Part shown: positions 2,042-62,419 of the stretch, piece by piece
How the letters are laid out: the number at the start of each line of letters is the position of its first letter
How positions within the stretch are numbered: the stretch's first letter is position 1
NCBI GenBank assembly: GCA_007376285.1
Contig: VMFZ01000001.1
Coordinates: forward strand, 11,033-75,032
Origin: Parcubacteria group bacterium Gr01-1014_17
GTDB taxonomy: Bacteria; Patescibacteriota; Minisyncoccia; Phycocordibacterales; UBA10002
Direction: 5' to 3'
Length of the DNA: 64,000 nt
Made by a program: the position numbers and the translations under genes
Notes under the pieces: generated by a model
The model's database searches: none
The model's input: only the letters and a program-made list of their open reading frames with translations
What the model was told of the DNA's origin: nothing

Positions 2042-3247
2042 TTAATAGCTTTTCAATTTCTTCGCCTTATCGTGTTGTCGGATTTTTTCGTGCGCTTTCG
2101 CCTCAATTTGGCGAATGCGTTCGCGTGTGACGCCGAACTTTCCTCCAACCTCTTCTAAAGTGTGTGTGATGCCGTCGGTCAACCCATGCCGCATTTCCAA
2201 AATGCGGCGCTCTTTTTCCGATAATTCCCCCAAAATCTCGCGCACCTGGTCGCGCAAAATCCGACGCGATGACTCGTGGTCGGGCGAGAGAATTTTGTCA
2301 TCCGCCACAAAGTCGCCCAGGGTTGAGCGGTCGCTGTCACCGTCGTCGCCGACGGGCGTTTCCAGTGAGAGCGTGTCTTGGTCTATTTTTTCAATTTGGT
2401 ACACCTTCTCTGTTTCAATTCCCATTTCAGTCGCAATTTCTTCTGGCAACGGGTCGCGCCCTAAATCCATAGAAAGCCGGCGAAACACTTGCTTGTATTT
2501 TGAAATCGTTTCCACCATATGCACCGGCACGCGAATGGTGCGCGACTGGTCCGCAAGTGCGCGCGTAATCGCCTGCCGAATCCACCAGGTCGCGTAGGTG
2601 GAAAACTTATACCCTTTGGTCCAATCAAACTTTTCCACAGCCTTGAATAACCCTAGGTTACCTTCTTGAATCAAGTCAAGAAGCGTTAAATCAGGTGAGC
2701 GCCCAACATATTTTTTCGCAATAGAAACCACGAGCCGCAAGTTTGCTTTTGCAAGCAAGTTTTTCGCTTCAGTATCGCCGACCGCAATCCGCTTCGCCAA
2801 ATCCTTTTCTGCTTGTGCTCCGATAAGCGGGTACTGCCCGATTTCGCGGAGGTATATTTGAATTGAATCGTGCGATGAGCCGCTCTCTTCGTGCCTGCCG
2901 GCATACACAGGTTTTGCTGGAGCGCTTTCTGTCAAATTTAGCATTCCACCGCTTTCAAGCACATCCACGCCCGCCTGATGCAACCGTTCATACAGCGTAT
3001 CCAAAAAAAGAATATCTTCTTCTATATTAGGAAACTCGCGTAAAATCTCATCGTAGGTTACAAATCCGCGTTCCTTGCCCTTTGCCAAAAGGCGCTCCGC
3101 GCGCGCGCCACCATCTTTCTTGCGCGCCTGCGCTTTCGTCGGTGCCGAGCGCCGCCGCGCAGGCGTGCTCCTTTTTGCGTGCTTTCGTGTGGGGCGCGCC
3201 TTCTTTTTTAGGTGTTTTTTATTCGTCTTCTTCGCTTTTTTCATCAT
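2042..3247 (-). CDS. rpoD: RNA polymerase sigma-70 factor RpoD
   Basis: [13 protein letters not shown] region 2.4 motif, regions 3 and 4 present; directly downstream of dnaG (classic dnaG-rpoD pair). Confidence 0.95.
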
Positions 3248-3271
3248 AAAAAATGATTATAGCACAAACCA

Positions 3272-4993
3272 CTATGCCGATGAAGCACGCTTAATTTCCT
3301 CAATCCGCATACGAAGCGATTGAAGTTGCGTCAGAAGTTCCATTCGGCGCGCTTCGTCGGCAGTTCCTCGTTCCGTAACGGTAAGTTCGTTAAGTATTTT
3401 TGCGGATTTTCTTTCTAATTCTTCCTTTTCAATATGAAACAGTAGCACACGCACTTCTTTTTCAAGAGACGGCACCTCGGCGAATCGCGCTTCTGCTTCA
3501 AAAATATGCGTATCTCGCTCGTTTTCCCCGAGTGCCGAAAGCAATAATGAGAGTTTTCCTGAAATTGCGTTTATCTCTTCTTTTAATTTCTCCGTATCAA
3601 CTTTTCGCTCTCCCTCTGGAAGTTTCTCTTGCCAAAATATAATACCGGCAAGAAGACGAACTGCTTCTGGAACAGCGTTCCCGACTTTGTTTGTTGGGAG
3701 TTGGTTGTTGGGAGTTGGTTGTTGCACCGGCAAACGCTTCAAATCATCCCAAACCGCATCCTCGCGCACCTCAAGCGCTCCCGCAATTTCCTTCACAAAT
3801 TCCGCGCGCTCAATTGCGCTCTTGATGTCGCGTACAAACGGGAGCACTTCGTCGCGCAAAAGGCGCGCGCGCTCCCGCCCTGTTTTCGCGCGCGTAAGCG
3901 CGCGCTCAAAAAGAAACCGCACAAAATGCATACTGTTTTTAATCCCATGTGCAAAATCCGCCGGATTTTTCCAAATGATATCCGCTGGGTCTTTTCCGCC
4001 AGAGAGCGCCGCGATTTTCACCGCCATTCCCTTTTGCAGTGCCGCAGAAACCGCGCGGAGCGCTGCCTTTTCCCCAGCCGCATCCACATCGTATGCAAGC
4101 AGAAGATTTTCAGAAAACCGCCGCAGAAGATCTAAATGTTCGTGAGTCAGCGCTGTGCCGGATGCCGCGACTGCATTTTCAAACCCCGCCTGATGGCACA
4201 TAATCAAATCCACTTGACCTTCTACCAAAAGCGCGTAGCCGCGCTCGCGAATCTTGTGTTTTGCGCGGTGGATGCCGTAGAGCGCCGACGACTTGCGCCA
4301 CACTTCCGTCTCGGGCGAATTCACATATTTCGGAGTACCCTCTTCTTCTTTCCCAAAGATGCGCCCAGAGAACGCAATCACGCGACCTGCGGAATCAAAA
4401 ATCGGAAACATAATCCGATTGCGAAACACATCATATGGCTCGCCTTTTTTCTCAACCGACTGTTTAATAAGCCCCGCGCGAAAAAGCTCCTGCTCGGAAA
4501 ACTTTTTTGCAAGCAAATGCGCGCGAAGCGCGCGCCAAGAATCCGGCGCAAACCCAATGCGCCACATCTCTATAGTTTTAGGCAACACGCCGCGCTCAGT
4601 GAGATATTTGCGCGCGTCCGCGCGCAAAGCAAACTCTCCTTCAAAAAACCGTGTCGCTTCCTCAAGCGCTGCAAACAAACGGTCGCGGGCATCATTTTCT
4701 TGCGCGTGAAAGCGAGTAAGAGGCACACCAGCACGCTCGGCAAGAATTTTTAAGGCACCTTTGAAATCGACCCCCTCCATCTTTTCCACAAAAGAAAAGA
4801 TATCGCCTTTTTCCCCGCATCCAAAACAATAAAAAGAACCGCGCGATGTCGATACGAAAAACGACGCGGTCTTCTCGTGATGGAGCGGGCACTTTGCCTT
4901 CAAGTTCGCGCCAGCGCGCTCCAGCTTCAGATATGCTCCCACGACCTCTTCCGCTCCCAATCGCGCCTTTATTTCTTCAACAGGAGATGACAT
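3272..4993 (-). CDS. dnaG: DNA primase
   Basis: CHC2 zinc finger CPLHHEKTASF..FYCFGCGEKGD, TOPRIM core; 573 aa. Confidence 0.92.
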   Translation of the reverse strand: MSSPVEEIKARLGAEEVVGAYLKLERAGANLKAKCPLHHEKTASFFVSTSRGSFYCFGCGEKGDIFSFVEKMEGVDFKGALKILAERAGVPLTRFHAQENDARDRLFAALEEATRFFEGEFALRADARKYLTERGVLPKTIEMWRIGFAPDSWRALRAHLLAKKFSEQELFRAGLIKQSVEKKGEPYDVFRNRIMFPIFDSAGRVIAFSGRIFGKEEEGTPKYVNSPETEVWRKSSALYGIHRAKHKIRERGYALLVEGQVDLIMCHQAGFENAVAASGTALTHEHLDLLRRFSENLLLAYDVDAAGEKAALRAVSAALQKGMAVKIAALSGGKDPADIIWKNPADFAHGIKNSMHFVRFLFERALTRAKTGRERARLLRDEVLPFVRDIKSAIERAEFVKEIAGALEVREDAVWDDLKRLPVQQPTPNNQLPTNKVGNAVPEAVRLLAGIIFWQEKLPEGERKVDTEKLKEEINAISGKLSLLLSALGENERDTHIFEAEARFAEVPSLEKEVRVLLFHIEKEELERKSAKILNELTVTERGTADEARRMELLTQLQSLRMRIEEIKRASSA

Positions 4994-12001: not shown

Positions 12002-12263
12002 AAGAAAACAAAAGCCCTCGCCAAGGCCTTTGTGGTGTGCTGCTAATTGTTATTTAGTTGTTCGAACGCAAAATGGCGCTCTATTGCTTACTAAAAAGCG
12101 TCCCGCGGAACTCAATCGTGTATATATCAAATGTACTCGGGCAGTATATACCCACTCATATTTTCTGTCAAATGCAAGTTTGGAGGGTGTGGATAACTCC
12201 CCCACTCGCAAAAACAGCCGAGTGCGCGGTCGGTTGTTTTTTTGTTCTTTCCCGCATCCGTCT

Positions 12264-12291
12264 ATACAGACATTTTGCAAAATGTCTGTAT
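12264..12291. promoter_or_regulatory. perfect 28-bp palindrome ATACAGACATTTTGCAAAATGTCTGTAT, copy 1, between arsR stop and the rpoB leader
   Basis: exact inverted repeat read in the sequence; identical copy at 12625-12652. Confidence 0.5.
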
Positions 12292-12325: not shown

Positions 12326-12604
12326 TTAGTTTTCCGACAGTTCTTTGCAGAAAGAGAGCACCGCTTCCGCCCGCTCGGTTATCTTGTGCCGCACCTCTTT
12401 TCCTTGATACCGTTTCAACACCAAACCCGCAATCGCAAGTTTTCGGATGTGGTCGGAAGTATTTTCATAATTTGAATCAAACGCTCTCGCAATTTCTATA
12501 ACGGACAGTTCCGGTTTTTTCTTAAGCAATGCCAAAATTGCTAATCGCCGATGGTTTGCAAAGCCCTTGATAATTCGCTCCAGTGGTCGCCCTTCAATAC
12601 TCAT
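12326..12604 (-). CDS. ArsR/SmtB-family winged-HTH transcriptional regulator
   Basis: 92 aa; HANHRRLAILALL..LSVIEIARAF..NTSDHIRKL HTH signature. Confidence 0.8.
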   Translation of the reverse strand: MSIEGRPLERIIKGFANHRRLAILALLKKKPELSVIEIARAFDSNYENTSDHIRKLAIAGLVLKRYQGKEVRHKITERAEAVLSFCKELSEN

Positions 12605-12624
12605 GTTGTCTTTATCTTACTCTT

Positions 12625-12652
12625 ATACAGACATTTTGCAAAATGTCTGTAT
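12625..12652. promoter_or_regulatory. perfect 28-bp palindrome, copy 2, 21-48 bp upstream of the arsR start (candidate autoregulatory operator)
   Basis: identical to 12264-12291; 12-2-12 architecture typical of ArsR-family operators. Confidence 0.5.
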
Positions 12653-12661
12653 ATACCACAG

Positions 12662-17669: not shown

Positions 17670-18666
17670 GAATCACGCCTGCGCCGCGCGCGACTGCGGT
17701 CAAGGGCTCCTCGCCAATATGCACCGGAATCTTCATATGCTCTTCAATCAATGCATCAAGTCCGCGGAGAAGCGCCCCACCACCGACTAAGTACATGCCG
17801 CGGTGCATAATGTCTGCGACGAGTTCCGGCGGGGTCGTTTCCAGCACCCCGCGGATTGATTCAAGTAAAATATCAAGCGATGGCGCGAGCGCGTCGCGCA
17901 CATCCGAATCTGTAATGACGGCTTCGCGCGGAAGTCCGGTGATAATGTCGCGCCCGCGCACGGCGGTTTGCAAAAGTTCCCGCTGGGGCATTGCCGAACC
18001 GATTGCAATTTTAAGTCCTTCCGCGGTCTTCTCACCGATAAGCACTTTGTATTCGCTCCGCACGAAACTGATGATGTCATTGTTGAAACGGTCTCCTGCG
18101 ATTTTCAAACCCTTTGAACGCACGACACCGCCCATAGATATCACGACGATATCGGATGTGCCGCCGCCAATATCCACCACCATAGTACCGACCGGTTCTT
18201 TGATGGGAAGACGCATCCCGACTGCGGCGGCAATCGCCTCGTCTACGAGAAACACTTCACGCGCGCCGCGGCTTTCGGTCGCGTCACGCACCGCGCGCGT
18301 TTCAACATTCGTAACGCCTGCAGGCACGCCGACAATCACGCGTGGCCCGAGCATGGCGCGCTGACCCCCTTCGGCGCGGCGCATCAAGTACGCGAGCATC
18401 TCTTCCGTTACTTCAAAATCGGAAATCACGCCGCCAACCATTGGCTTCACTGCTATGATGTGCGGCGGGGTGCGCCCGAGCATTTCCTTTGCCGCGGAGC
18501 CGACTGCGACCACTTGGTTTGTTTTTTGGTTCACGGCAACAACCGACGGCTCGTTAATAACGATGCCCCTGCCGCGCACATACACCAAAGTATTCGCGGT
18601 GCCGAGGTCAATCGCAATGTCGTTTGAAAACCGCCGCCTGAGTTTGTTCCAGTAGGTTTTGAACAT
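17599..18666 (-). CDS. mreB: rod shape-determining protein MreB (actin homologue)
   Basis: IAIDLGTANTLVYV phosphate-1 motif; start set at Met55 of the 409-aa ORF, the upstream extension has no homology. Confidence 0.93.
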   Translation of the reverse strand: MFKTYWNKLRRRFSNDIAIDLGTANTLVYVRGRGIVINEPSVVAVNQKTNQVVAVGSAAKEMLGRTPPHIIAVKPMVGGVISDFEVTEEMLAYLMRRAEGGQRAMLGPRVIVGVPAGVTNVETRAVRDATESRGAREVFLVDEAIAAAVGMRLPIKEPVGTMVVDIGGGTSDIVVISMGGVVRSKGLKIAGDRFNNDIISFVRSEYKVLIGEKTAEGLKIAIGSAMPQRELLQTAVRGRDIITGLPREAVITDSDVRDALAPSLDILLESIRGVLETTPPELVADIMHRGMYLVGGGALLRGLDALIEEHMKIPVHIGEEPLTAVARGAGVILERLDEFSDLLVEPDSNELPPPA

Positions 18667-18860
18667 AGGAGAATGGTGCAGACAGTATGCCTGTTTTTCC
18701 GACAAATGAAAACGCTTGACATAATTTAACTTAACCAATATACTTATATTCCGAAGCAAAAGTATCGCTAAATGCGCTCGACGCGCACGCCGCATGGTTC
18801 GCCCAGCGGCTTTTTTTATTCCCCCCAACCCATTTCTTTTTTTTATTCCTTCTTCTCCAA

Positions 18861-18898
18861 CTATTCCAACTACTTGCTATAGCAGATAAATGGAAGAG
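18861..18898. repeat. 38-bp imperfect palindrome CTATTCCAACTACTTGCTATAGCAG.TAA.TGGAA.AG, copy 1
   Basis: centre TTGCTATAGCAA is a perfect palindrome; copies at 19510-19549 and 37213-37250. Confidence 0.7.
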
Positions 18899-18901
18899 GT
18901 G

Positions 18902-19483
18902 TTATTTCTTGAGTTCAAAATGACGGAGCAACTCGGCTTCGTGAGAGATAGTAGAAAGCGTTGCATAACGGACAAAATACCGCACATTGAAAAATGTGGC
19001 AATAAAATCAATCTCGTCACGGCAAGGATACGGATGTACGAACACCGACTTTTGCCAATGATAAAAGTCCAAATCGTACAGTTTCAATCGAAGCGACTCG
19101 CGCGCGGTTTTCCAGCCCTCGGGAATATCAAAAAAAACCGCGTGCCATATCCCGTCCCATTGTGTTGGCTTCGCTATCTCCATTTTGTGCAGATGAAAGG
19201 TGAGCGCCCGCTTTTTTCCGCGTTCCAAAAGAACCACGGTTCGTGTTCCGCCTTCATCTTCTTCTATACTGACTAATTGTTCATCTTCAAATTCCCGAAT
19301 AATACGATAGAGATAGGCGCGGTTAATCTGTTTCCATTCTTTCGCCAACTCTTCAAAAATCCGAAACTGCCGTGGTAGGGTTCCGGCAAAACTAAGCGCC
19401 ACGCCCGCTTGCAGTAACAGAAGCACTTTCTGCTTGACGGGACTAGAGATGCGTCTTTTGCGTACAAAGATTGTTTTTCTCAT
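18902..19483 (-). CDS. PaaX-like regulator (N-terminal wHTH plus C-terminal Cas2-fold PaaX_C-like domain), flanked by inverted repeats
   Basis: 193 aa; C-terminal DGIWHAVFFDIPEGWKTARESLRLKLYDLDFYHWQKSVFVHPY resembles the PaaX C-domain. Confidence 0.5.
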   Translation of the reverse strand: MRKTIFVRKRRISSPVKQKVLLLLQAGVALSFAGTLPRQFRIFEELAKEWKQINRAYLYRIIREFEDEQLVSIEEDEGGTRTVVLLERGKKRALTFHLHKMEIAKPTQWDGIWHAVFFDIPEGWKTARESLRLKLYDLDFYHWQKSVFVHPYPCRDEIDFIATFFNVRYFVRYATLSTISHEAELLRHFELKK

Positions 19484-19509
19484 TTCTTTTATCTTATTTT
19501 ATTTTGATA

Positions 19510-19549
19510 CCTCTCCCAACTACTTGCTATAGCAAGTAACTGGAATAGG
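19510..19549. repeat. 38-40-bp imperfect palindrome, copy 2, 27 bp upstream of the PaaX-like start
   Basis: CCAACTACTTGCTATAGCAAGTAACTGG. Confidence 0.7.
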
Positions 19550-19571
19550 TCACCATTACACCAATAAGTTG

Positions 19572-20825
19572 TTACGGGAGGTGAAATGTTTTTAGAAATT
19601 CATTTACCGATACAATCCGCACAGTGTCGCTTGTTCGCTTTTTTATTTCAACCTTTCCAGCCGGCGTTTTCTCTGATATCACGGCGCGGAACGGAATGCC
19701 GATGAGGTCGGCATCCGCAAACTTTTCGCCGGCGCGCGCGTCGCGGTCGTCGTAAAGTGTTTCAATACCGGCTTTTTGAAGTTTTTCGTAAAGCGCATCC
19801 GCATCCTTCCCTGCTTTGCTCTTTCCTGCACCAGCGAGAGAAACAAGATGCACCGAAAATGGCGCGATACTCTCGGGCCACACAATTCCTTTTTCGTCTG
19901 AAAATAATTCAACGGCAACACCCATTGTCCGCCCCGGTCCAATACCGTAACTTCCCATAAACACGGACATCTCTTTCCCCGTCTCGTCGCGGTACTGCAA
20001 ACCAAGCGCATCGGAAAACCTCGTGCCTAGCGTAAAGATATTGCCAACTTCAACCGCCTTCTCGCGCGCAAACTGTGCGTTCCCGCACTGAGGGCATGCT
20101 GTTTGTTCTGTAATAATCTCGTCATTCACCGCAATGCGGCACTTTTCGCACAGATGTATCGCGTCTTCTCCTGCGGCGCAGATGGTCTGAAACTCGTGCG
20201 AATATTTACTAAATGAACCACCGGAGGCGAAGGTAAGAACTGTCTTTTCTCCAATCCCGATGCGCTTGAAAATAGCGTGATATGCTTTTTTTACCTGTTC
20301 GTAAAAAGGCATATGCTCGGCTTCGTTTTTGCTAAACGAATATAAGTCCTTCATCAAGAATTCTCTTCCTCGGATAATGCCGCTCCGTGCGCGCAGTTCG
20401 TTCCGAAACTTCACCTGAAATTGGTACGGATATTTCGGGAGGTCTTTATAAGAAGAAATATGGTCACGCATGAGCGCGGTCAGCGGCTCCTCGTGCGTAA
20501 ACGCAAGCCCTGTCTCCGCGCCTCCTTTGAGTTCGGTTTTGAACCACGAATCCACCGCGCGCTCGTCCCAGCGACCTGTCTTTTCCCACACCGCCTTGTC
20601 TTGCAGGGCGGAAAGAAAGAGTTCCTGTCCGCCAATCGCATTAATTTCTTCGCGAATAATTCCGATAATTTTATTCAGCACGCGAAATCCAAGCGGTAAA
20701 TATGAATACACGCCTGCCATTTCTTTATGAATAAACCCCGCGCGAATCAAAAGTTTCGCGTTTTGCGACACTTCGTCTTTCGGCGCATCACGCCGCGTCT
20801 TGGTAAAAAGAAATGATTGCTTCAT
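19572..20825 (-). CDS. proS: proline--tRNA ligase, short bacterial type lacking the INS editing domain
   Basis: 417 aa; class II motifs; a Cys4 insert (CEKC...CPQC) sits where the editing domain normally is. Confidence 0.88.
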   Translation of the reverse strand: MKQSFLFTKTRRDAPKDEVSQNAKLLIRAGFIHKEMAGVYSYLPLGFRVLNKIIGIIREEINAIGGQELFLSALQDKAVWEKTGRWDERAVDSWFKTELKGGAETGLAFTHEEPLTALMRDHISSYKDLPKYPYQFQVKFRNELRARSGIIRGREFLMKDLYSFSKNEAEHMPFYEQVKKAYHAIFKRIGIGEKTVLTFASGGSFSKYSHEFQTICAAGEDAIHLCEKCRIAVNDEIITEQTACPQCGNAQFAREKAVEVGNIFTLGTRFSDALGLQYRDETGKEMSVFMGSYGIGPGRTMGVAVELFSDEKGIVWPESIAPFSVHLVSLAGAGKSKAGKDADALYEKLQKAGIETLYDDRDARAGEKFADADLIGIPFRAVISEKTPAGKVEIKKRTSDTVRIVSVNEFLKTFHLP

Positions 20826-32401: not shown

Positions 32402-32440
32402 CCCGCGACTTGAAATATAGTCGCGGGTTTTCTTTTTTTC
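32402..32440 (+). terminator. Rho-independent terminator CCCGCGACTTGAAATATAGTCGCGGG + TTTTCTTTTTTT
   Basis: perfect 8-bp stem plus T-run. Confidence 0.7.
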
Positions 32441-32830
32441 CGCTTTTATACAAACATTTTGCCCTCCTCATCGGCGGGCAAGCAAAATGACTGGATACAC
32501 TATCTTTGGCGGTCGCAAAGTTTAGTGTATATAGAAAGTTCTACCATACTACAAAGTATGAGAGAAGAAATTAGAGCGAACGAAACTCGTTGAGGCGCGC
32601 AGGTTTGCAAACATGGGTAAGGCACGAAGCGAAATGCTTTTTCAAAATGTCTGGAGCGAGTGGTCGCATTGCAGCGACCCGAGCGTTACCGAGGACTTTT
32701 GTAAAAAGCATTTTGCGGAGTGTCTTCCTTTCAATGCGCGCCGAGAAAGAGTTCTAAGAGACACCAGATGTTTGCCATCTATCCCGCCTCATCGGCGGGT
32801 CGCCGAGGAGGAGACAACATCTGGTGTCAA
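32440..32830. repeat. mosaic repeat island A with four modules: ATTTTGCC..GGCAAAAT hairpin (32456-32488), ACACTATCTTTGGCG..AGTGT (32497-32528), AGAGCGAACGAAACTCGTTGAGGCGCGCAGGTTTG (32573-32607), family-H palindrome (32761-32828)
   Basis: modules shared in the same order and orientation with island B (37100-37530) and partly with 59604-59660. Confidence 0.7.
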
Positions 32831-36703: not shown

Positions 36704-37045
36704 ATGAAAATACAAAGACCTCCGCGGAAAGAGTTTGTTGAGTATCTTGCATCAGAAAATCCTCAAGACATGGGTATTATCTCTCATGTTGGACTCACGC
36801 GTGAAAAAGCCTGTGAAATTTGTGAGTTGCTTTTACGCGAGGGCGAGTGGATGATTGAAGTCGGGCAACGCAGAGAAAAGTTTCTAGCATGGTTGCTAGA
36901 CAAGAAAACCAATGAAATCGTCTGGGTTACTCCACCGATTTTTGACTCGCGTAATCAAGCGAAAAATTATTTGGAAGAATATACCAGTTGGATACAAAAA
37001 GTATACCTTACAAATTGGGTCGCATCTGGTTGTCCCCGTCCTTGA
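36704..37045 (+). CDS. hypothetical protein (113 aa)
   Basis: ORF followed by terminator AAGCCGTTCGCAAGAACGGCTTTTTCTTTT (37058-37090). Confidence 0.45.
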   Translation: MKIQRPPRKEFVEYLASENPQDMGIISHVGLTREKACEICELLLREGEWMIEVGQRREKFLAWLLDKKTNEIVWVTPPIFDSRNQAKNYLEEYTSWIQKVYLTNWVASGCPRP

Positions 37046-37099
37046 GCACTCTTTACCAAGCCGTTCGCAAGAACGGCTTTTTCTTTTGTCTATTCTCTT

Positions 37100-37530
37100 A
37101 TTCTCACGAATTAGTCCATACAAGTATTTTGCCCGCCTCATCGGCGGACAGGCAAAATACTGAAATACACTATCTTTGGCGACCTCTAGAGATAGTATGG
37201 GTATTCGCCTGACTATTCCAACTACTTGCTATAGCAGTTAATTGGAATAGTGAATAGTAATAGTGATAAAAATCACGGAGGCACCAGATGTCTAAATTGC
37301 AGACATCTGGTGCCGAAAAAAGAGCGAGCAAACTCGTTGAGGCGCGCAGGTTTGAGACGCCCTTGCGCAATCTGAAAACACGAAAGCGAGGAAGTACCTA
37401 TGCCGAGACGGCGAGGAGGCGAACGGCCATGGACTCCCGAGCGAAGCGAGGGAGGAGTGAGCCGAGCGGATAAGGCAAAATTCCTCGGAGGGGAATTTTG
37501 CCGGTCTCGGCAGAGGTAGCTTCCGAGCGC
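37100..37530. repeat. mosaic repeat island B: ATTTTGCC hairpin (37126-37158), ACACTATCT element (37167-37197), PaaX-type palindrome copy 3 (37213-37250), GGCACCAGATGTCT hairpin (37280-37314), AGAGCGAGCAAACTCGTTGAGGCGCGCAGGTTTG (37321-37354), GGCAAAATTCCTCGGAGGGGAATTTTGCC hairpin (37474-37502)
   Basis: direct-repeat partner of island A. Confidence 0.7.
37288..37473 (+). CDS. putative 61-aa highly basic small protein (weak resemblance to the ribosomal protein S21 C-terminal half)
   Basis: GGAGG 8 nt upstream of an ATG that lies inside the hairpin arm; K/R-rich; a decayed fragment of the same ORF occurs in island A. Confidence 0.3.
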   Translation: MSKLQTSGAEKRASKLVEARRFETPLRNLKTRKRGSTYAETARRRTAMDSRAKRGRSEPSG

Positions 37531-38701
37531 TATTTTATTTCCCCCTTCCCCAAATACGGCACCAGCACGGGTGGAACGACGATACTTCCGTCTGCGCGCT
37601 GGTTGTTTTCCAACAAAGAAATCAGAAGGCGTGGCGTAGGCGCGGCGGTGCAATTCAGTGAATGCGCGAACTTTTGTTTTCCGTCCTTTTCTTTGTAACG
37701 AATGTTAAGTCGCCGCGTTTGAAAATCGTGGAAGTATGAGGCAGAACTTATTTCCCGATATCGCTTTTCTGATGGCACCCACAGGTTAATATCATATTTT
37801 TTCACTTGTCCGAGCCCGAGGTCTCCGCCGCAATTAGTAACCGTCTGGTACGGAATACCGAGCGCTTCCATAAACTCCTCTTCGTTGCGATTCATTTCTT
37901 CATGAAAGCGCACTGAGGTCTGGTGGCTCGCTTCGCAAAGCACTACTTGTTCACATTTAAAGAATTCATGCACGCGCATCAAGCCCTTCGTATCTTTGCC
38001 GTGGCTCCCCGCCTCACGCCGGAAACAAGGCGAGAACGCGATGAGCTTTTTTGGGAGTTCTTCCGCAGAAAACATGCTGTCCGCGAAATACGACATCACC
38101 GGCACTTCGGCAGTGCCTGCAAGATAATCGCCGTCCTGTGTTTTATACAAATCGTCTTCGCCCTGCGGAAGGTAACCGGTGCCGAGAAGCGCTTCGCGCC
38201 GAACGAGAGAAGGCGCCAGCATTGGCGAAAAACCTTTCTTCACAAAGAAATCAAAACAAAACTTCCAAAGCGCGAATGATAAAAGCGCGCCATCGTTTTT
38301 CAGAAAGTACCCGCGGAAACCAGATACCGCCGCGCCGCGCTCAAAATTCGCCATATCGTTTTTCAAAAGCAAATCAATATGGCTTTTCGGTTCAAAAGCA
38401 AACGCTGGCTTCTCGCCCCAACTTCGCACTTCGGCATTGTCCGCATCGCTTCCTCCTTCCGGTACGGAAATATCGGGCACATTCGGCACTTGGAGCATCA
38501 GTGTCTGCCATTGTTGCGTCGCTTTTTTCAGACGCCGCTTTTGCGATTCTGCTCCGCGCGCTTGTTTTCAACAACCGTGAGAAGTGCGCGGCGCTCGTCG
38601 TCTACGGCAATAAGTTCTTCCACTTTGAAATCGACGCACTTCTTCCGCGCCGCCTCGGCAACAAGTTCTTTGTTTTCTCGGATGAATTTTATATCCAACA
38701 T
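37530..38701 (-). pseudogene. serS: serine--tRNA ligase gene interrupted by a +1/-1 frameshift at an A6 tract (N-terminal 57 codons 38528-38701; catalytic part 37530-38498)
   Basis: N-fragment MLDIKFIRENKELV...AEQNRKSGV* matches the SerRS N-terminus, and the 322-aa ORF is the class II catalytic core starting near VPNVPD. Frames differ by 1 nt around GTCTGAAAAAAGCG. Confidence 0.8.
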
Positions 38702-59555: not shown

Positions 59556-59730
59556 AAACCGACTCGCGACCCGTAAGTACTTTTGTACTGCGGGTCTGTT
59601 TTTTATACAGCTATTTTGCAAAATACTGAAATACACTATCTATGGCGACCGCAAAAGTTAGTGTGCACGCATTTAGCATTAAGATACGGCCGTAGCTTAT
59701 TGCTACAAAATCCTACCCCAACCCCCTCCT

Positions 59731-61450: not shown

Positions 61451-62419
61451 TCAAACTATTAGATTCGGCGGTGTTTTACCTTCAAAAAACGAAATAAGAT
61501 TGCGTGCGGCGAGCTCAGCCATCTCTTTGCGCGCCAACTCGGTTGCTGAGGCGATGTGAGGAGTGAGTACAACATTCGGGAGTTTCGCCAGCCCTTTTGC
61601 GAGCTTCGGTTCAAATTCAAACACATCAAGCCCAGCGCCAGCTATCACTCCTCGCCGAAGCGCCTCCACGAGCGCGCACTCGTCAACTACGGGCCCGCGC
61701 GAAGTGTTTATAAGATAAGCGGTCTTTTTCATAATCGCCAATCTCTCTTTGTTCATCAGATGCCGTGTCGCGTCAGACAAAGGAACATGAAGCGAGACCA
61801 CATCGGCGACCCGGAGTACTTCTTCAACGGTCTGGTAAAACACGGCTCCGAAGTCCTTTTCAAGTTTTTCGTTGCGCACGATATCGTAATACGCCACCTC
61901 CATCATAAATCCATTTCTTGCCCGATGCGCCACATCAGCCCCGATGCGCCCCGTACCGATAATGCCGAGTGTTTTTCCGGCAAGATTCGTGCCGTGCAAA
62001 AGCATCGGGTCCCAACCCTTATACTTTCCTTTCTTTATATAGACATCCCCCTCCACGATACGGCAGGTGAGCGCAAGAATAAGCCCCCACGCATGCTCCG
62101 CTACTCGCTCTGCACCGCCACCTGGCGTGTTGGTAAGCGTAACGCCCCGCGCCTTCGCCGCCGCGAGGTCAAAATTGTTAAAGCCGATTGCATAATTCGC
62201 AAAAATCTTCACCGACGGCGCTGCATCCATCACCTCAGCGTCAATCGCATCAGTCAAAAGCGAGAGCACGCTGTCGTAGTTTCCTTTTCGGAGCACTTTA
62301 ATAAGCTCTCGTTTAGTGAGCGGACGATTTTTAGAAGACACATCAACCGCAAAGTCATTCTCGCGAAGCAGAGCGAGTCCGTTTTCCGGAATCCTGCGCG
62401 TGACGAAAATCTTTTTCAT
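61451..62419 (-). CDS. D-isomer-specific 2-hydroxyacid dehydrogenase (glycerate/hydroxypyruvate reductase-like)
   Basis: NAD-binding GIIGTGRIG, catalytic RG..H/E residues; 322 aa. Confidence 0.85.
   Translation of the reverse strand: MKKIFVTRRIPENGLALLRENDFAVDVSSKNRPLTKRELIKVLRKGNYDSVLSLLTDAIDAEVMDAAPSVKIFANYAIGFNNFDLAAAKARGVTLTNTPGGGAERVAEHAWGLILALTCRIVEGDVYIKKGKYKGWDPMLLHGTNLAGKTLGIIGTGRIGADVAHRARNGFMMEVAYYDIVRNEKLEKDFGAVFYQTVEEVLRVADVVSLHVPLSDATRHLMNKERLAIMKKTAYLINTSRGPVVDECALVEALRRGVIAGAGLDVFEFEPKLAKGLAKLPNVVLTPHIASATELARKEMAELAARNLISFFEGKTPPNLIV

Follow-up and report, generated by a model that had tools for sequence, protein, structure and literature searches.

PaaX, the phenylacetyl-CoA-responsive regulator of E. 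coli and Pseudomonas (PDB 8a39, 3l09), is built from a winged helix and a Cas2-like dimerisation domain (PF20803). The 39-bp operator of the E. coli protein reads TGATTC-N27-GAATCA, and at its own promoter PaaX acts as a repressor that keeps RNA polymerase off (PMC9493321). We analysed a gene for a shorter protein with a predicted winged helix and a Cas2-like domain, named X below, together with the 38-bp palindromes on either side of it, in a 64,000-nucleotide stretch (the window) of contig VMFZ01000001.1, positions 11,033 to 75,032, of Parcubacteria group bacterium Gr01-1014_17. PaaX has 316 amino acids (aa) and a C-terminal phenylacetyl-CoA-binding effector domain, whereas X has 193 aa, lacks that domain and is not linked to paa genes. 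The candidate site of X is 38 bp long against 39 bp for PaaX, and both lie at the regulator's own promoter. PaaX constrains the outer hexamers only, whereas the X sites are constrained over the whole arm and the dyad core. X retains FDIP and QKSVF, two motifs that have been lost from E. coli PaaX, and it has sites on both sides of its gene. Our preferred reading, to which we assign a probability of about 0.68, is that X is a truncated PaaX-type autorepressor with two flanking operators, which it would bind as a symmetric dimer.

Cas2 and VapD share with X a ferredoxin-like fold and the motifs FD(I/L)P and QKSV(F/Y). The start of helix alpha-1 of Cas2 forms a contact surface for double-stranded DNA, and residue 125 of X lies there. 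X differs from Cas2 in its fusion to a predicted winged helix and in being without cas1, a CRISPR array or a defence context, and its predicted contact appears to be base-specific, not made to the backbone only. LacI (O1/O2/O3), GalR (OE/OI), DeoR and AraC use two or more cognate sites separated by hundreds of bp, with one site at the promoter and another within or beyond the gene. X resembles them in its two distant cognate sites, one at the promoter and the other beyond the gene. What their loops enclose is a promoter or target genes and not the whole coding sequence of the regulator itself, whereas the second X site follows right after its own stop codon in ~60% of the sampled members. Like X as predicted here, the ArsR/SmtB autorepressors are small winged-helix proteins that dimerise, and a palindromic operator precedes their own start codon by 15-25 bp. 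Their operator is near-identical across members (TTTTGCAAAA centre), whereas the arms of the X family are paralogue-specific. In the RAYT/REP (repetitive extragenic palindrome) system, a vertically inherited single-copy gene for a Y1 transposase is flanked by cognate REP palindromes that occur in hundreds of copies per genome. X is alike in its vertical inheritance, its cognate flanking palindromes and a further copy elsewhere, but a Y1 transposase is missing, the 64 kb contain only three copies, and the palindromes overlap a promoter and co-vary with a residue of a DNA-binding fold. Our literature search found no description of the X family, the bracket, the conserved dyad core with paralogue-specific arms, or the residue/base rule described below. 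What is new here is the widespread two-sided arrangement, the conserved dyad core combined with paralogue-specific arms, and a rule implicating the Cas2-like domain in base recognition.

The gene and the palindromes lie in the window as follows.

18902..19483, minus strand: gene X, 193 aa, with a Pfam PF20803 PaaX_M match.
18861..18898, no strand assigned: palindrome A, putative downstream operator, dyad between 18879/18880, 3 nt from the X stop codon TAA (18902-18904).
19511..19548, no strand assigned: palindrome B, putative upstream operator, dyad between 19529/19530, 27 nt from the ATG at 19483.
37213..37250, no strand assigned: palindrome C, solitary third copy inside a composite repeat island.
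18831..18860, minus strand: A-rich stretch ending in AAAAGAAATG, which follows palindrome A in gene orientation and resembles the stretch from palindrome B to the X start codon.

The window was searched by direct reading and by pattern searches, and the 38-bp quasi-palindrome was found in exactly three copies. The skeleton TTCCA-N7-GCTATAGC-N7-TGGAA, with at most 3 mismatches allowed, gave 3 matches against 0.02 expected from shuffles. The dyads of A and B are 650 bp apart. The likeness of the flanks extends beyond the palindromes: 18831-18900 and 19481-19550 (repeat family D5) are 73% identical over 70 nt, and the repeated unit is therefore the palindrome plus ~30 nt. The first-pass annotation, made on the letters of the window, had reported three copies, two of them bracketing the 193-aa gene. 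Its coordinates for A and C were exact, and the gaps of 3 nt and 27 nt were confirmed. Copy B, which it had placed at 19510-19549, is present with corrected limits of 19511-19548, and the perfect TTGCTATAGCAA core that it described belongs to copy B only, copies A and C reading TTGCTATAGCAG. It had also put the third copy, at 37213-37250, inside a repeat island; this was right, and the island is homologous to 32440-32530 and 59604-59705. The same annotation had called the protein a PaaX-like, Cas2-fold regulator, and both the PaaX_M match and structure prediction agreed with this.

The product of X showed 100% identity with a hypothetical protein from the Gr01-1014_17 genome, encoded on an 85-kb contig; full-length homologues were mostly 180-210 aa long. 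Its parts are a basic N-terminal tail, a predicted winged helix-turn-helix (wHTH) at residues ~15-100 and a Cas2-like domain at residues ~105-193. The PaaX_M match covered residues 107-179 with an E value of 2.6e-16 and 59.9 bits against a cut-off of 24. An AlphaFold model was built on 32 homologues and matched to known structures by Foldseek. The C-terminal half, modelled at a predicted local distance difference test (pLDDT) score of ~90, matched Cas2, VapD and PaaX 8a39 at probabilities of 0.98-1.0 (1.00 for 8a39; 0.95-1.0 for several Cas2 structures), and the central Cas2-like domain of PaaX was thus recognised in X by Pfam and Foldseek alike. The N-terminal half was modelled as helices 15-32, 36-52 and 55-67 followed by a beta-hairpin at 70-87; a profile search with X returned the wHTH protein AF_1382 at E 0.19, and sequence searches of the PDB gave marginal Cas2 and wHTH matches only. 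On the PaaX_M match and the AlphaFold and Foldseek results together we judged that the protein probably has the wHTH/PaaX fold. The Cas2-type motifs FD(I/L)P and QKSVF are kept across the X family. FDIP of X aligned with FDLP of Cas2 6jhz, and D119, the acidic Cas2 residue at the end of beta-1, is invariant in the family, so that X has both the Cas2 fold and its acidic residue; E. coli PaaX reads LLLLSEG at the equivalent place, with Ser instead of Asp. The Cas2 models of Pfam and NCBIfam scored X below their thresholds, and the Cas2 matches of PADLOC were likewise sub-threshold; the NCBIfam and PADLOC searches matched no other family. X is a fusion of 193 aa, not a stand-alone protein of 90-100 aa linked to cas1 or an array as expected of a CRISPR-associated Cas2: the window held no CRISPR-like array, and no Cas1 family was seen among the annotated neighbours of eight loci. 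In the Pfam scan X matched neither the PaaX N-terminal family nor the PaaX_C effector domain, the protein ending at residue 193 right after the Cas2-like domain, and the X-family loci examined showed no linkage to paa genes. Because the effector domain and nearby paa genes are lacking, X stands outside the PaaX family in the strict sense; it is a truncated, more Cas2-like PaaX relative.

We sampled 80 loci of X homologues (~84 genes) from species-representative genomes and scanned their flanks for zero-loop palindromes with a score of at least 10, over ~200 bp upstream and, downstream, over a stretch that opens shortly ahead of the stop codon and ends 170 bp past it. An upstream palindrome was found at 56/83 homologues (67%) and a downstream palindrome at 53/84 (63%), and 40 homologues had palindromes on both sides. 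Control windows taken from the same loci contained a palindrome in 22 of 616 cases (3.6%). The sites thus exist and flank most of the ~84 sampled homologues; as set out below, they also sit over promoters and co-vary with a protein residue. The repeats are neither absent around orthologues nor common at random loci, and the earlier suggestion that dimeric-repressor operators flank the regulator was supported by the fold, by this comparison, by the promoter overlap and by the co-variation. The centre C[GT][AG]T[CA]G was present in all but 2 palindromes on each side and in 3 control palindromes only, its commonest forms in the family being CGATCG, CTATCG and CTATAG. Arms had a median length of 21 nt and family palindromes spanned 32-44 bp, with many copies perfect over 30-48 bp. 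The two copies of one locus had similar arms, and the arms of paralogues differed, even in one genome. Within ~465 kb of flanking DNA, cognate palindromes were almost absent away from an X-type gene. The downstream palindrome started at a median of 16 nt after the stop codon, with 10 cases overlapping it, and the next gene followed 2-850 bp away, often on the opposite strand. Dyad-to-dyad distances in the family ranged from 603 to 787 bp, and the position of copy B agreed with that of the upstream palindromes of the homologues.

The X family is large: clustered at 50% identity, it numbers 411 clusters at E <= 1e-30, and 2621 when the limit is relaxed to E <= 1e-10. Records with a specific taxon belonged to Parcubacteria/Paceibacteria groups, and many others carried generic or probably mislabelled names. 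Several X paralogues may occur in one genome, at 40-75% identity and never near-identical. At locus L017, two X paralogues stand in tandem at 2965-3549 and 4185-4775, ~630 bp apart; the pair fits an origin of paralogues by tandem duplication, which would offer a route to the operator-gene-operator layout. For a second paralogue in the window, tblastn gave only a weak match at 61724-61828, inside a 2-hydroxyacid dehydrogenase gene, so that none is present.

A second regulator gene of the window served as a control for the scan.

12326-12604, minus strand: ArsR/HTH_20 gene, 92 aa, flanked by identical 30-bp palindromes TATACAGACATTTTGCAAAATGTCTGTATA at 12263-12291 and 12624-12653.

Among 80 metagenomic homologues of this gene, an upstream palindrome with the TTTTGCAAAA centre reached a score of at least 10 at 63/81 genes, and most of the others had a weaker form. 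A cognate downstream copy was found at ~10/80, mostly in close relatives of this genome. Since the downstream copy is rare in this family, the X bracket is not an artefact of the method. What is occasional elsewhere is thus the norm in the X family: a regulator gene bracketed by its palindromes.

A profile summed over 212 half-sites of X-family palindromes showed two constrained, symmetric blocks, at positions 1-4 (T, C/A, G, Y) and 8-16 (T8, W9, T12, G13, A16). Positions 5-7 were variable and the least symmetric, and symmetry faded by position 20. T was not enriched beyond the arms in this profile, and a terminator scan of 18500-19700 found no terminator-like site, so that intrinsic terminators were not indicated at the X locus. 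With two constrained blocks, a less symmetric gap at 5-7 and no T tract, the pattern is that of a protein-binding site and not of a terminator. Copy B folded as a hairpin (z -3.7). The single strand of copy A did no better than shuffles (dG -3.1 kcal/mol, z -0.2): its inner arms are non-complementary and make a poor palindrome, while the outer TTCCA/TGGAA blocks and the GCTATAGC centre are retained. A motif kept without hairpin potential was counted in favour of double-stranded binding.

Hexamers resembling a -10 box ended 3-14 nt (mode 6-7) before the ATG at 31/46 loci, against 66/920 random positions (7%). Their peak, at 25-40 nt from the dyad, was confined to upstream palindromes and to the side facing the gene, and at some X-family loci the -10 box lay inside the outer arm. 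With a -10 box 6-7 nt before the ATG, the upstream palindrome covers the -35/spacer region and the transcripts look leaderless, which suggests that the X promoter is of a leaderless type; since the boxes lie downstream of the palindrome, the palindrome would stay outside the gene's own transcript. At the locus in the window, the corresponding elements are the following.

19514..19519, minus strand: putative -35 hexamer TTGGGA, in the promoter-proximal arm of palindrome B, 17 nt upstream of TAAGAT.
19491..19496, minus strand: putative -10 hexamer TAAGAT, 7 nt before the ATG, with an alternative TAAAAT at 19496-19501.

TTGGGA was assigned by analogy with the -10 geometry of the 31/46 homologues; TTGGGA/TAAGAT makes 8/12 matches, and a consensus promoter scan flagged no X promoter. 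Judged at the level of sequence, X has the long (~39-bp) palindromic candidate operator at its own promoter that marks PaaX, as well as the combination expected of an autoregulated repressor, a site over its own promoter and co-evolution of protein and site.

The co-evolution was read from an alignment of 69 proteins with their consensus half-sites, in which all residue/base pairs were scanned by mutual information and by contrasts. The strongest of all pairs joined residue 125, which is K or R at the start of helix alpha-1 of the Cas2-like domain, to the base at +/-4 from the dyad. K125 went with C in 33/43 proteins and R125 with T in 21/25. Thirteen of 16 phylogenetically independent K/R contrasts changed from C to T and none were reversed; with an all-column tree the figure was 11/16. 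By a rough binomial estimate, the association was still significant after correction for ~3000 tests. The rule held equally at upstream and downstream sites and distinguished recent paralogues of one genome, such as those at L037 and L038. In the Cas1-Cas2 complex of E. coli, the equivalent place of Cas2 (N10, R14 and R16, at the start of alpha-1) touches duplex DNA (PMC8390960). At locus L170 (4949-4992 and 5578-5613), which encodes a Lys125 protein, the base at +/-4 is T in the upstream site and C in the downstream one. Cross-regulation may thus exist, with another paralogue recognising some of the flanking sites.

The mechanism that we propose is as follows. X, with its predicted winged helix and Cas2-like dimerisation domain and no effector domain, would bind the ~38-bp palindromes that enclose the gene. 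Two winged helices would most likely read the outer arms, which take up positions 8-16 from the dyad (TTCCA/TGGAA in the window). The alpha-1 start of a Cas2-like dimer sitting on the dyad would most likely read the centre C[G/T]AT[C/A]G and the bases at +/-4. Because palindrome B lies over the -35/spacer region, occupancy of the upstream site would shut off transcription of X. The downstream site, presumably bound by X as well, would most likely strengthen repression by looping the 650-bp gene, or alternatively act as a roadblock separating X from neighbouring transcription. Copy C would add one more binding site, without a known target. Binding itself, repression and, most of all, the part played by the downstream site are what we infer from these patterns.

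Several observations weigh against the autorepressor reading. The N-terminal half of the X model is of low confidence (pLDDT 50-70), and the Pfam scan of X gave no wHTH family above threshold, only PadR at E 0.073. The residue/base scan found no winged-helix residue that clearly co-varied with bases of the arms. The dyad spacings showed no helical phasing (Rayleigh p ~0.3), which leaves looping without direct support. Copy C lies between the convergent 3' ends of a 113-aa open reading frame (ORF, plus strand) and serS (minus strand), with no evident promoter. Where the copies of a locus differed, 61 positions showed the change mirrored in both arms of a copy, while the other two-and-two patterns accounted for 11 and 4; the selection of good palindromes biases the count of mirrored positions. 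Sense-strand G.T mismatches outnumbered A.C mismatches by 90 to 50. The mirroring and the G.T excess hint that more than simple binding is at work, be it some constraint on self-complementarity or homogenisation by template switching. Template-switch repair in quasi-palindromes is a known mutational process that could give such mirroring.

The mirroring and the G.T excess also speak for a role of the palindromes as RNA or single-stranded DNA hairpins and not as double-stranded operators, be they terminators, stabilisers or REP-like elements, maybe recognised by the RRM-like Cas2 domain. The many perfect palindromes of the family would suit such a role, the Cas2 and VapD relatives among the Foldseek matches include ribonucleases, and this genome has several other hairpin repeat families. 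We nevertheless hold hairpins to be an unlikely explanation, in that no T tract follows the stem, the positions beside the would-be loop (5-7) are the least symmetric, copy A does not fold, the position of the -10 boxes leaves the upstream palindrome outside the transcript, and the K/R125 link concerns the identity of a base and not its pairing. A different concern is that the downstream palindrome might be the operator of the next transcription unit, here mreBC, with X a regulator of neighbouring genes and the bracket incidental. In the window, a degenerate copy of the X promoter region comes after palindrome A, which stands 195 bp before mreB; in about a quarter of loci the downstream palindrome has a -10-like box behind it (13/51, 25-40 nt bins) and a co-directional gene starts within 35-70 bp. 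Against this, the downstream site keeps close to the stop codon of X (median 16 nt, 10 overlaps), the next gene lies anywhere from 2 to 850 bp off and often on the other strand, and the orthologous loci L083 and L084 have opposite-strand ORFs between the site and mreB, which together make this account improbable. X could also be a site-specific DNA-processing enzyme, nuclease- or recombination-like, acting at the CGATCG-like dyad through a Cas2-type acidic site; excision, inversion and selfish self-guarding are conceivable uses. FD(I/L)P, whose Asp is catalytic in Cas2 and is Ser in E. coli PaaX, is invariant in the family, as is QKSVF; the palindromes vary in their arms and hardly at all in the dyad core, and the arms of one copy remain mirror images. 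But neither inversion nor excision was seen among six orthologous loci, X lies among housekeeping genes and neither cas1 nor a CRISPR array was found, promoter overlap already accounts for the upstream site, and the invariant residues may merely serve dimerisation or DNA contact; we regard such an enzyme as quite improbable. Equally improbable in our estimation is its fuller form, in which a wHTH-Cas2 fusion nicks, cleaves or synapses the palindromes as a self-contained module for DNA processing or self-guarding of Candidate Phyla Radiation bacteria and a living intermediate between Cas2 and PaaX, the reaction itself keeping the arms mirrored.

The first-pass annotation had offered a tiny mobile cassette as its alternative, and had proposed a synteny comparison, which we carried out. 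As a present or recent cassette, the gene would be flanked by palindromes that are its ends or a duplicated target, with copy C an empty or solo site. Near-identical repeats do flank X and a solo copy exists; the repeated unit runs ~30 nt past the palindrome on one side (D5), as expected after duplication; locus L075 has proS next to mreB, without X in between; and several paralogues can occur per genome, with a tandem pair at L017. Synteny told otherwise. In the window X has ddl, tRNA-Ala, proS, mreB and mreC as neighbours, and it keeps its place in the order proS-X-mreB(-mreC) in relatives at 82, 80, 73 and 57% identity. The palindromes have diverged between these relatives and yet remain paired within each genome, changing in step, which argues that selection or conversion keeps the two sites alike and that they are not relics of one insertion. 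Other X-family loci also have housekeeping neighbours, such as a tRNA synthetase, superoxide dismutase (SOD), ClpB and CTP synthase. No inversion, excision or presence/absence variants were seen among the six orthologous X loci, and scans of X and the window found no transposase or recombinase domain of the kind expected in a mobile element. A scan of 2.9 million viral contigs gave one distant relative, 31% identical and with no flanking palindrome. The paralogues are old (40-75% identical, never near-identical), the ~465 kb of flanks are almost free of cognate palindromes away from the gene, and each end is a full palindrome instead of a terminal inverted repeat. The cassette is thus not supported, and we regard it as very improbable.

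To our knowledge, gene regulation in Candidate Phyla Radiation bacteria is almost unknown, since these bacteria cannot be grown alone. The X family is large, and dozens of matched regulator/operator pairs could be proposed for it from sequence alone. The candidate recognition rule pairs Lys125 with G:C and Arg125 with A:T at +/-4. Within one genome, paralogues of recent origin differ in precisely this residue and base, which suggests that each was insulated from the other. As far as we know, the Cas2-like fold has so far been seen to touch the DNA backbone only; the rule suggests that it can read bases as well. A regulator whose sites enclose its own gene appears to be a recurrent design. The regulator/site pairs could serve as orthogonal repressors in synthetic biology, and they raise hypotheses on how Cas2 was converted into PaaX-type regulators.

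The solitary copy C belongs to one of three composite islands.

32440-32530, 37118-37250 and 59604-59705, strand not given: composite islands, mutually homologous, of three parts each.

The first part is a palindrome like the ArsR-type operator of the window, which in two islands is split at its dyad by a CCGCCTCATCGGCGG hairpin insert. The second is the quasi-palindrome ATACACTATCTTTGGCGGTCGCAAAGTTTAGTGTAT with the centre CGGTCG/CGACCG. The third is a variable palindrome slot, holding the X-type site at 37213 and TAGCATTAAGATACGGCCGTAGCTTATTGCTA at 59674. The islands could be regulatory hubs, decoy sites or an element like a miniature inverted-repeat transposable element (MITE). The bases of copy C at +/-4 are of the K125-associated type, as for gene X. 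Beyond the palindrome its likeness to copy A (D12) is weak, and neither a clear promoter near it nor a gene remnant beside it was found. Rfam scans, of the window at gathering thresholds and of 36950-37600 at E-value thresholds, returned tRNAs and chance matches only. In L084, a relative at 73% identity, serS lies just upstream of proS-X, and copy C may therefore mark an old rearrangement, or else be a genuine extra site. The palindrome TAGCATTAAGATACGGCCGTAGCTTATTGCTA (59674-59705) is shaped like X-family operators elsewhere (compare TAGCATGAGAATACGATCGTATTCTCATGCTA in L037); its +/-4 bases are of the A/T type that goes with Arg125, and the window holds no matching paralogue.

The serS gene beside copy C (37524-38701, minus strand) matches the L084 SerRS in different frames, aa 1-55 at 38701-38537 and aa 77-424 at 38564-37524, which indicates a frameshift, a programmed shift or an assembly error. 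Other short, G+C-rich intergenic hairpin families, some of them nested, occur in the window, for example CGCCTCATCGGCGGGTCGCCGAAGAGGCGACA, CACCCGATGTTTGCCGCCTATCAACATCGGGTG and GGCACCAGATGTCTGCAATTTAGACATCTGGTGCC. Their positions fall into three groups.

12675, 32774, 35342, 42151, 46654, 50315 and 56869: hairpin repeats, one group.
21926, 46532, 54127 and 61410: hairpin repeats, another group.
23229 and 37279: hairpin repeats, a further group.

These families look REP- or MITE-like and are unusual for so small a genome. Between mreB and X, at 18716-18826 on the plus strand, TTGACA and TATACT stand 17 nt apart as a promoter with 11/12 matches, followed ~50 nt on by a GCCGC...GCGGC stem and TTTTTTT. 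This could be a small RNA of ~70 nt pointing towards palindrome A.

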